Positions 40,417 through 40,908 of a stretch of DNA of 64,000 bases are shown here, one piece after another. Where the stretch lies: the sequence record MN445185.1. One strand, 5' to 3'. How positions within the stretch are numbered: position 1 is the stretch's first letter; each line of letters begins with the position of its first letter. A model generated the notes under the pieces. The model was not told the origin of the DNA and searched no databases. It saw nothing but the letters and a program-made list of their open reading frames with translations. The DNA is from Escherichia phage vB_EcoM_EC001. The position numbers were made by a program, and so were the translations under genes.

Positions 40417-40908
40417 CTATTTATTTTCTTCTAACGGAACAATCGTAACCGGGGTAGGAACTTCGTCAATAAAGCCGCCGCTGCAGCGAAAGAACGTCAT
40501 CCCTTTACCTTCCCCGGTATGCGGGTTCACATCCGAAAAAGAGTAAGTGGGGCCATCGTTTACGGTTTTATTAATACGGTAATAACGCTCACCTGTGGTG
40601 GTGTTAACATTCCCGTCGATTTTGCCAATTGTATCTTTAAACATCATCGGTGACTCAAGTTTGCCACCGTCCCACGTTGCTACCCAGTTTGCACCCACAT
40701 CCATTACTGTTACTGACCGCGGCATCATTTGTAGGTTGTCCAGTACCGGACGGTAGTCTATAAACTTCTCCTGTGTCCCTGTGCATGTATAAATCACCAA
40801 GTCGCGATTCTTTACCGGTGTGCTGCTAAATTGTCCGATGTTGCTTGGTGACTGGACGCAACCGGTCAACAGGCTTATAAACGCGAATACGATAAATAGA
40901 CGTTTCAT
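40417..40908 (-). CDS. Putative lipoprotein (signal peptide with LLTGC lipobox)
   Basis: N-terminal MKRLFIVFAFISLLTGC; AAGGA SD; opposite orientation to its neighbours. Confidence 0.7.
   Translation of the reverse strand: MKRLFIVFAFISLLTGCVQSPSNIGQFSSTPVKNRDLVIYTCTGTQEKFIDYRPVLDNLQMMPRSVTVMDVGANWVATWDGGKLESPMMFKDTIGKIDGNVNTTTGERYYRINKTVNDGPTYSFSDVNPHTGEGKGMTFFRCSGGFIDEVPTPVTIVPLEENK

Follow-up and report, generated by a model that had tools for sequence, protein, structure and literature searches.

The gp159 gene and its product

The 64,000-nucleotide stretch of Escherichia phage vB_EcoM_EC001 analysed here (record MN445185.1; hereafter the window, with coordinates counted from its first letter) contains a small minus-strand gene, gp159, whose predicted product is a lipoprotein. 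The initial annotation had described it as a 163-residue open reading frame (ORF) with a signal peptide and an LLTGC lipobox, and had likened its arrangement to that of the receptor-masking superinfection-exclusion lipoproteins found next to receptor-binding genes in T5-like phages. The ORF listing and the sequence agree with this description, as an ORF of 163 residues with an ATG start codon lies at 40417..40908 (-), and the gene is the orthologue of gp159 of Salmonella phage SPN3US (SPN3US_0159 / ACQ60_gp107), whose numbering we use for it and for its neighbours. We consider it sound to upgrade the annotation from "hypothetical protein" to "conserved outer-membrane lipoprotein, not in the virion".

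gp159 is a genuine conserved gene and not a chance ORF, because it is annotated in the related phages, because its ratio of nonsynonymous to synonymous divergence from SPN3US (dN/dS) is 0.20, and because the lipobox cysteine and two further cysteines are invariant in its homologues. The segment of the window from 39000 to 42500 aligns from end to end with Seoulvirus jumbo phages of Salmonella (SEGD1, JN03, SaP7, SPN3US and others) at 96-97% identity, and orthologues of gp159 are annotated in all of the related phages that we examined, SPN3US and SPLA3 included, under the label "hypothetical protein". For the homologues of Kwan, Huxley and Asesino, UniProt gives the name "Lipoprotein", and a literature search returned no publication on gp159 or on any SPN3US lipoprotein. 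A foreign origin of the gene was also considered and rejected, as its G+C content of 46.3% is ordinary compared with 48.5% for the window.

The N-terminus of the precursor (MKRLFIVFAFISLLTGC) matches the PROSITE PS51257-type lipoprotein pattern. It has a positively charged n-region (K2 and R3), a hydrophobic core at residues 4-14 (LFIVFAFISLL; 11 residues with a mean Kyte-Doolittle value of 3.1) and an L-T-G-C lipobox ending at Cys17, in agreement with the pattern [LVI][ASTVI][GAS]C with the cysteine at position 15-35. The signal peptide and lipobox of the initial annotation thus stand, and Cys17 is invariant in 13 homologues. Downstream of the signal, a hydropathy check found no segment near transmembrane hydrophobicity. 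Cys17 is therefore the predicted acylated N-terminus of a mature protein of 147 residues, about 16.3 kDa and an isoelectric point of 5.1. According to the Lol rule of E. coli, lipoproteins without Asp at position +2 are sorted to the outer membrane. This residue is Val in gp159, so that outer-membrane sorting is predicted, and Ala or Ser in most homologues (in one of them, P0019, the cleavage site is ambiguous); we infer that the product is located in the outer membrane of the host. It is, furthermore, a non-virion protein, since neither gp159 nor gp156, gp158 or gp161 is among the 86 proteins of the SPN3US virion proteome (PMC5694885, Supplementary Table 1), whereas gp155 and gp157 appear there as proteins of the head.

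Family, conservation and predicted structure

A word-indexed search with gp159 returned phage relatives only, and when 1.84 billion representative proteins were searched exhaustively with a profile, just 13 relatives came up, with no bacterial homologue or bacterial chromosomal context. By tblastn over 50,697 phage records, the gene is present in 65. The carriers are all Seoulvirus, the Salmonella phages SPAsTU/STsAS and pSal-SNUABM-04, the E. coli phage Goslar (31% identity) and Erwinia jumbo phages such as Asesino, phiEaH2, Stratton, Kwan, Wellington, Huxley and Caitlin, among others, and the hosts represented are Salmonella, E. coli, Erwinia and Proteus. As far as these searches reach, the family is confined to nucleus-forming jumbo phages of Enterobacterales. 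Two groups of database entries stand apart. In about ten SPFM records (LR535901-LR535913), the gp159 region matches as short pieces only, and the SPFM predicted proteins P0006-P0010 carry gp159 segments in reversed order, a pattern that looks like an artefact of assembly or sequence orientation rather than biology. One profile hit, P0018, is a predicted protein of 5404 residues in which nine separate stretches match the lipoprotein profile, and it may have arisen through mis-assembly or mis-calling, in the way suspected for the SPFM records.

The sole family match of gp159 is to phrog_9559 (E = 4.5e-81), a family of unknown function; there is no match in Pfam, NCBIfam or PADLOC, the best match of a sequence-profile search of the PDB is to the lipoprotein signal of TrwH/VirB7 only, and Rfam returned nothing relevant. 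In an alignment of homologues with 29-94% identity, the invariant positions are Cys17, C42, C142, G72, R108, Y110, R111, S125, G132, G134 and G136. The presence of two extra invariant cysteines in an exported protein suggests a periplasmic disulfide, which would probably join C42 and C142. The C-terminal tail, on the other hand, is missing in four homologues (P0013, P0015, P0016 and P0019).

Modelling with AlphaFold2 from six close homologues gave a mean predicted local distance difference test (pLDDT) of 37, and the model became usable after seven distant homologues had been added. With these 13 sequences, pLDDT is 80 and the predicted template modelling score is 0.69, with core residues 31-140 mostly above 90. 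In the model, the signal helix is followed by a flexible linker (pLDDT below 50 at residues 19-22), about 11 beta strands and a disordered tail at 148-163, and a small all-beta barrel is predicted with confidence. A Foldseek search of the PDB with this model gave no significant match. The corresponding search of BFVD returned family members, together with weak matches (template modelling scores of 0.4-0.48) to other uncharacterised phage "lipoproteins", which are probably inflated by the signal helix.

Organisation of the locus

The features discussed below are collected in Table 1. All genes from 118 to 40291 are on the plus strand and all genes from 41662 to 61485 are on the minus strand, so the initial description of gp159 as the only minus-strand gene holds for the upstream side but not downstream of it. 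gp159 sits at the strand switch, and gp160 could equally be called a lone plus-strand gene. Its "own terminator" is likewise half right: a strong hairpin (a GC-rich stem of 13 base pairs, 3 nucleotides past the stop codon, with a folding free energy of -31.2 kcal/mol and z = -5.6 against shuffles) does follow the gene, but it is bidirectional, and the converging gp157-gp158 genes have it on their downstream side as well. Together with the second hairpin, beyond gp160, it suggests that gp159 and gp160 are two monocistronic divergent units, and gp159 thus appears to form a transcription unit of its own.

Table 1. Positions of gp159 and of the features around it in the window
Feature	Position	Strand	Evidence or remark
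Lipoprotein gene gp159	40417..40908	-	Orthologue of SPN3US gp159
Signal peptide and lipobox, residues 1-17 (MKRLFIVFAFISLLTG, then C)	40858..40908	-	Pattern check; Cys17 invariant in 13 homologues
Ribosome-binding site AAGGA	40915..40919	-	6 nucleotides before the gp159 ATG, read from the sequence
AATATGAC element, candidate phiKZ-type late (non-virion RNA polymerase) promoter core	40960..40967	-	Sole TATG within 160 nucleotides upstream
Divergent intergenic region, 124 bp	40909..41032	.	Common to gp159 (-) and gp160 (+)
Bidirectional intrinsic-terminator hairpin	40384..40414	.	Between converging gp158 (+) and gp159 (-)
Second bidirectional terminator hairpin	41621..41644	.	Between gp160 (+) and gp161 (-); terminator scan of both strands
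gp160, small DUF7941 protein	41033..41581	+	Pfam DUF7941, phrog_4862; SPN3US proteomics
gp161, DUF4376 protein	41662..42333	-	Weak match (E = 0.00043) to a tail-protein PHROG family
Cell-wall-hydrolase cluster gp156-gp157-gp158	38183..40291	+	Converges on gp159; Pfam and PHROGs
gp155, DUF7941 and GP38-type glycine-rich adhesin domain	35963..38131	+	Pfam GP38, 9e-19; phrog_2056

The neighbours had been described as a lysis module on one side and a fibre-family gene on the other. For the first, there is a muramidase with GH108 and PG_binding_3 domains (gp156) and a weakly M15-peptidase-like protein that matches an endolysin PHROG family (gp158), but gp157 is a DUF1353 protein, and neither a holin nor a spanin is annotated in the cluster. 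Two tiny ORFs lie on the plus strand between gp156 and gp157. The one at 38833..38934 encodes an amphipathic peptide of 33 residues with a basic C-terminus (MKQNWFAALMKAIWRALVFAARRKR...), overlaps the stop codon of the endolysin gene and is conserved in Asesino (gp172), and the one at 39007..39117 encodes a peptide of 30-36 residues with one transmembrane segment; these could be holin-like or membrane-disrupting lysis peptides. The second description does not hold, as gp160 carries, by Pfam, the N-terminal DUF7941 domain only and is an abundant head protein in SPN3US. There, it is present in more than 300 copies per virion, which places it among the most abundant virion proteins, and it belongs to a 20-member paralogue family (family B) whose members, gp160 included, all occur in tailless particles and were for this reason assigned to the head (PMC5694885). 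A long tandem array of paralogues of about 270-330 residues, corresponding to SPN3US family B members gp138-154, takes up about 13 kb (21644..34538, +) on the upstream side of the locus.

The nearest candidate for a receptor-binding protein in the window is gp155, a protein of 722 residues encoded 2.3 kb from gp159, whose PHROG family is labelled "tail fiber protein; host specificity"; other fibre candidates, gp168-170, lie 7.5 kb away. gp155 combines the DUF7941 domain of the head paralogues with an adhesin domain, yet the SPN3US proteomics places it in the head, and it might be a capsid-borne adhesin or a head fibre.

gp159 and gp160 are the genes of the region that have diverged most from SPN3US, and they form a local patch of divergence. 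For gp159, amino-acid identity is 93.9%, with dN of 0.033 and dS of 0.16; for gp160, it is 89%, with dN of about 0.05, dS of 0.07-0.08 and dN/dS of 0.6-0.75; and for nine of ten neighbours, it is at least 98%, with dN of at most 0.015, a variable dS and dN/dS of at most 0.26. gp159 is thus under ordinary purifying selection, and, given its raised dS, recombination is a likelier source of its divergence than positive selection. For gp160, such fast evolution is unusual in a major structural protein, and it suggests that the protein is exposed at the surface.

Expression signals

In jumbo phages with RNA polymerases of their own, early promoters carry a conserved AT-rich motif of about 10 nucleotides, while the late promoters of phiKZ share only T(-3)ATG(+1) (PMC7598289). 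By k-mer counting in the SPLA3 genome, we found a motif, TTTCAGATA(G/T)ATATTA(C/T)CTnrGTGAG, at 21 sites, all on the plus strand, and by analogy with phiKZ it is probably the early promoter (that of the virion RNA polymerase) of this phage group. Four of the sites are represented in the window, at 865-900, 7712-7747, 16111-16146 and 20655-20690 (+). None precedes gp159: the best position-weight-matrix score in the divergent intergenic region is -14.9, compared with at least 19 for the 21 sites. What is found there is a TATG element of the form (A/T)(A/G)TATGAC, kept 37-64 nucleotides before the ATG in the window, SPN3US, Asesino, Kwan and the metagenomic contig L004, although its flanks have diverged. 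Its position predicts transcription from G40962, with a leader of 54 nucleotides. The lack of an early motif and the conservation of this element point to a non-early promoter, from which gp159 would probably be expressed late. The sequence WATATGAC is not enriched in the window (4 found, 3.6 expected), and a scan for sigma-70 promoters gave fewer matches than shuffles, a result that is not relevant here because the phage encodes its own RNA polymerases.

In SPLA3, one of the strongest early-type motifs directly precedes three genes for small, exported or membrane-anchored, cysteine-rich proteins, SPLA3_00184-00186 (176582..178002; L018:26582-28002), of which SPLA3_00185 and 00186 are paralogous; these are possibly early envelope-directed proteins of host takeover.

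Genomic context in related phages

Evidence for a link between gp159 and host recognition comes best from the gene order of the relatives, and not from the window itself. In contig L004 (40% identity), the homologue and a gp160-like gene are transcribed away from each other, as they are in the window. The same is true of Kwan and Asesino, in which the homologue converges on a DUF1353 gene, a tiny ORF and an endolysin gene, and in contig L011 (31% identity), the homologue ends a block of DUF7941 genes and converges on an M15-like gene, a DUF1353 gene and a pair of radical-SAM genes. In the window, this pair comprises the adjacent gp163 and gp164 (42838..45073, -; 100% and 99.7% protein identity to SPN3US), and it keeps its place near the gp159 homologue in Kwan, Asesino and L011.

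A different arrangement is seen in Goslar, in which one strand carries, in order, gp091 (a small DUF7941 protein), gp090 (a tail fibre with Phage_tail_fib, Phage_fiber_2 and a C-terminal glycine-rich domain), gp089 (a Caudo_TAP assembly protein) and gp088, the lipoprotein, which starts MKKLCAIILGMLMVLSLGGC. The gap between gp089 and gp088 is only 44 nucleotides, which suggests co-expression of the lipoprotein with host-recognition genes. The Goslar order recurs in metagenomic contig L005, except that a DUF4376 protein stands where Goslar has Caudo_TAP, and the homologues of these two loci stand at 29-31% identity. The most constant neighbour is, in fact, the small gp160-like DUF7941 gene, which is found in L004, Kwan, Asesino, Goslar and L005. 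At all loci whose flanks are long enough, the lipoprotein gene is accompanied by a small DUF7941 gene and usually by a tail-fibre-assembly-like gene, with a true fibre gene between these two in the Goslar branch, and a DUF4376 or Caudo_TAP gene adjoins the homologue in L005, Goslar and Asesino.

A possible role in the exclusion of incoming phage

Exclusion of the kind exerted by the phage lipoproteins Llp and Cor seems to us the single most plausible function of gp159, although reasoning from the window alone is weak. We put at about 0.35 the probability that the protein excludes incoming phage, or protects the progeny, by way of an envelope component that is used in host recognition. Judging by its sequence motifs, gp159 is made from its own single-gene unit, which lacks an early motif and has the conserved TATG-type element. 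It is a well-supported prediction that the product is exported through Sec, processed by Lgt and LspA at Cys17 and sorted by Lol, in keeping with Val at +2, to the inner leaflet of the host outer membrane, where the mature protein would be a beta-barrel of about 120 residues, probably locked by a C42-C142 disulfide and held on a tether of about 10-20 residues. In the proposed role, this barrel would bind the envelope component that the fibre or adhesin apparatus of the phage uses. With the envelope altered in this way, further particles of the same phage or of its relatives would be unable to adsorb or to inject productively, and the progeny would also be spared from loss on the debris of lysed cells. 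The logic would be that of T5 Llp acting on FhuA, or of Cor, carried out by an unrelated protein family.

Several observations can be counted in favour of this proposal. A lipoprotein located in the periplasm is what the invariant lipobox, the two invariant cysteines, the barrel model and the absence from the virion proteome suggest, and in Goslar and L005 the homologue directly follows, on the same strand, the fibre gene and the assembly or DUF4376 gene, an order of fibre, chaperone and lipoprotein that supports the analogy with superinfection exclusion. In the window, the GP38-type gp155 and the DUF4376 gene gp161 are both within 2.5 kb of gp159, and the fibre candidates gp168-170 are at the larger distance given above. 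Furthermore, the family is restricted to jumbo phages and has no bacterial homologues in our searches, divergence from SPN3US within the region is greatest in gp159 and gp160, and the gene appears to be an autonomous unit with its own promoter region and terminator. The analogy drawn by the initial annotation thus keeps the lipoprotein call and gains the Goslar-type fibre context, but it loses the supposed fibre gene to a head protein and finds no homology to Llp or Cor.

Other observations weigh against exclusion. gp159 has no homology to any known exclusion protein in Pfam, PHROGs, NCBIfam, PADLOC or, by Foldseek, the PDB, and no receptor-binding protein adjoins it in the window, in which its neighbours are the peptidase-like gp158 and the head protein gp160. 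It does not co-vary with the adhesin-like gp155 (93.9% compared with 98.6% identity to SPN3US), and its divergence, with dS raised as well, may be simply that of a recombination patch. The shared gene order, too, may be no more than a consequence of the general collinearity of these genomes. The conservation of the family across hosts looks more like that of a housekeeping gene of the lineage than that of an arms-race gene, since it spans phages whose recorded hosts suggest different host ranges. The llp gene of T5 is, moreover, an early gene, whereas no predicted early-promoter motif lies upstream of gp159. Finally, SPN3US is reported to use flagella as its receptor (PMC11428620, with reference to the genome announcement). 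For a protein that faces the periplasm, the target would then have to be a secondary receptor at the surface, or the step of tail penetration and entry, which weakens the literal analogy with Llp.

Comparison with the known systems shows where the analogy is close and where it is not. Like gp159, the Llp of T5 and BF23 is a non-virion protein of a virulent phage with a signal peptide and a lipobox, and both are predicted to reside, stabilised by a disulfide, at the inner leaflet of the outer membrane. The position of llp beside a receptor-binding gene is paralleled in Goslar and L005, in which the gp159 homologue is close to the fibre gene. There is, however, no similarity of sequence or fold between the two proteins. 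Mature Llp has about 60 residues, and mature gp159, with about 147, is some 2.4 times that size; the gene in the window is not beside a proven receptor-binding gene and has no early-promoter motif; and the receptor that SPN3US is reported to use is the flagellum (PMC11428620), not FhuA or BtuB. Cor of phi80, N15, T1 and HK022, which inactivates FhuA, is also a small lipoprotein encoded downstream of tail fibre genes, as in the Goslar-type arrangement. gp159 is unrelated to Cor in sequence, with neither PHROGs nor Pfam linking it to a Cor-type family. It is also the larger protein, and its carriers are virulent nucleus-forming jumbo phages. A third comparison can be made with Spackle (Sp) and Imm of T4. 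T4 is likewise a large virulent myophage, and these two proteins, like gp159, are located in the envelope, are not part of the virion and could act on incoming particles at the periplasm. Sp and Imm are not lipoproteins and are helical rather than beta-barrel proteins, unlike the predicted barrel lipoprotein gp159, and we detected no sequence relation between them.

gp159 may bear on how nucleus-forming jumbo phages such as SPN3US, Goslar and the Erwinia biocontrol phages handle superinfection or manage the host envelope. If gp159 does block entry, its binding target would also reveal the (secondary) cell-surface receptor of these phages, which would bear on the design of phage cocktails. As a small, conserved, single-gene unit, gp159 is easily cloned, and an amber-mutant genetic system exists for SPN3US (PMC5694885). 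It is thus a moderately interesting and readily testable candidate, and not a surprising one, and the upgrade proposed here is an ordinary improvement of the annotation.

Alternative roles

An alternative that we regard as unlikely is that gp159 is a lysis-associated envelope factor that works with gp156, gp158, gp157 and the tiny membrane peptides, and helps to breach the outer membrane at lysis, or to time this event, though not as a canonical spanin. In the window and in SPN3US, Kwan, Asesino and L011, the gene and the endolysin/DUF1353/M15-like cluster are convergent, its TATG-type element and missing early motif suggest late expression, its broad conservation in the lineage fits a role in the core life cycle, and no holin or spanin is annotated anywhere in the SPLA3 genome. 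Against it, the homologue follows a tail fibre module in Goslar and L005, the predicted barrel is compact and has a variable, dispensable C-terminal tail, and a transmembrane protein and a lipoprotein that are encoded side by side elsewhere in SPLA3 are better candidates for disrupting the outer membrane.

To a similar extent improbable is an envelope lipoprotein whose role lies outside both entry and lysis, with the synteny to fibre and lysis genes being inherited gene order. Such a protein might, for example, counteract a host defence that is based in the envelope, change motility or vesicle release, or keep the envelope stable through the long latent period of a jumbo phage. Such a role would agree with the lack of functional homology by any of the methods used, with the broad collinearity of the region in all relatives (the radical-SAM pair included) and with the ordinary purifying selection on gp159. 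It makes no specific prediction, however, and the tight placement of the Goslar-type homologue behind the fibre and chaperone genes suggests co-expression with genes for host recognition.

We consider it quite improbable that gp159 is an outer-membrane-anchored inhibitor of peptidoglycan hydrolases, with a barrel like that of MliC/PliC, that neutralises the tail lysin of superinfecting phage (in the manner of T4 Spackle, against lysis from without) or holds back the hydrolases of its own phage until lysis. MliC, too, is a lipoprotein with a single disulfide, and two genes for cell-wall hydrolases are close to gp159. In MliC, the key lysine of the T-K-G motif contacts lysozyme, and the inhibitory motifs are SxSGAxY and YxxxTKG. 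The Y-x-C of gp159 (at C42) and its [ST]-G-x-R-[FYW] (T-G-E-R-Y) align with YQC and SGARY of MliC, both by eye and in the best hhalign path, with the E. coli MliC sequence checked against 2F09; the second of these is only a loose resemblance. Once the signal peptides were trimmed, nevertheless, the profile-profile comparison by hhalign gave a probability below 1% (0.4-0.6%), none of the 13 family members matches Pfam MliC (PF09864), even at E = 10, and K135, the by-eye counterpart of the MliC lysine in gp159, is variable among the homologues. gp159 also has about 30 residues more than MliC, PliC and PhiA. An untrimmed comparison with a probability of 59% was rejected, as the signal peptides alone had been aligned, and a large homologue search made on the MliC lead returned only relatives that are at least 79% identical and added little. 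Were gp159 either such an inhibitor or a lysis factor, it would help to fill in the largely unannotated lysis system of the lineage.

We would give a slim chance to a further possibility, namely, that gp159 founds a family of outer-membrane-anchored barrel lipoproteins specific to nucleus-forming jumbo phages of Enterobacterales, and protects the infected cell against incoming virions in a mode not yet described. In one version, it may be the MliC-like inhibitor considered above, directed at the tail-tip peptidoglycan hydrolase of superinfecting phage as a lipoprotein analogue of T4 Spackle. In another, it may mask the envelope ligand to which gp160, the abundant and fast-evolving DUF7941 protein of the capsid, would bind; the two have in common the divergent promoter region and the local hot spot of divergence.

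The last alternative, that gp159 is an o-spanin, the outer-membrane subunit of the phage spanin, is very improbable, because the gene has no partner and its product is predicted to be folded and has a dispensable tail: although it is, like the o-spanins lambda Rz1, T4 PseT.2 and T7 gp18.7, an outer-membrane lipoprotein encoded near an endolysin gene, and although no spanin is annotated in the related genomes, no i-spanin gene (that is, one for a type-II membrane partner) is adjacent to it, embedded in it or overlaps it, its flanking genes are on the opposite strand, gp158 and gp160 have no transmembrane segment, and its 147 mature residues form a confidently predicted barrel with 6.8% Pro and a C-terminal tail that is absent in several homologues, whereas o-spanins are short, proline-rich and unstructured. 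A spanin identity was rejected after a six-frame lipobox scan of the whole SPLA3 genome, in which three annotated genes have lipoprotein signals, namely, the gp159 orthologue, SPLA3_00184 and SPLA3_00204. The last of these encodes a lipoprotein of 159 residues with an LLTGC lipobox and 8% Pro, which starts MKLFLVAILVLLLTGC. It lies outside the region corresponding to the window, adjacent to SPLA3_00203 and on the same strand (OR413581.1, 190375..191373; L018:40375-41373), and SPLA3_00203 encodes 169 residues, in which an N-terminal transmembrane segment (26-56) is followed by a periplasmic part rich in Pro. Both proteins are annotated as hypothetical and belong to PHROG families of unknown function. 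With the arrangement of a classical separated pair, they are candidates for a two-component i-spanin/o-spanin system, and this better spanin candidate elsewhere in the genome removes the main competing role that a phage lipoprotein such as gp159 might have had.

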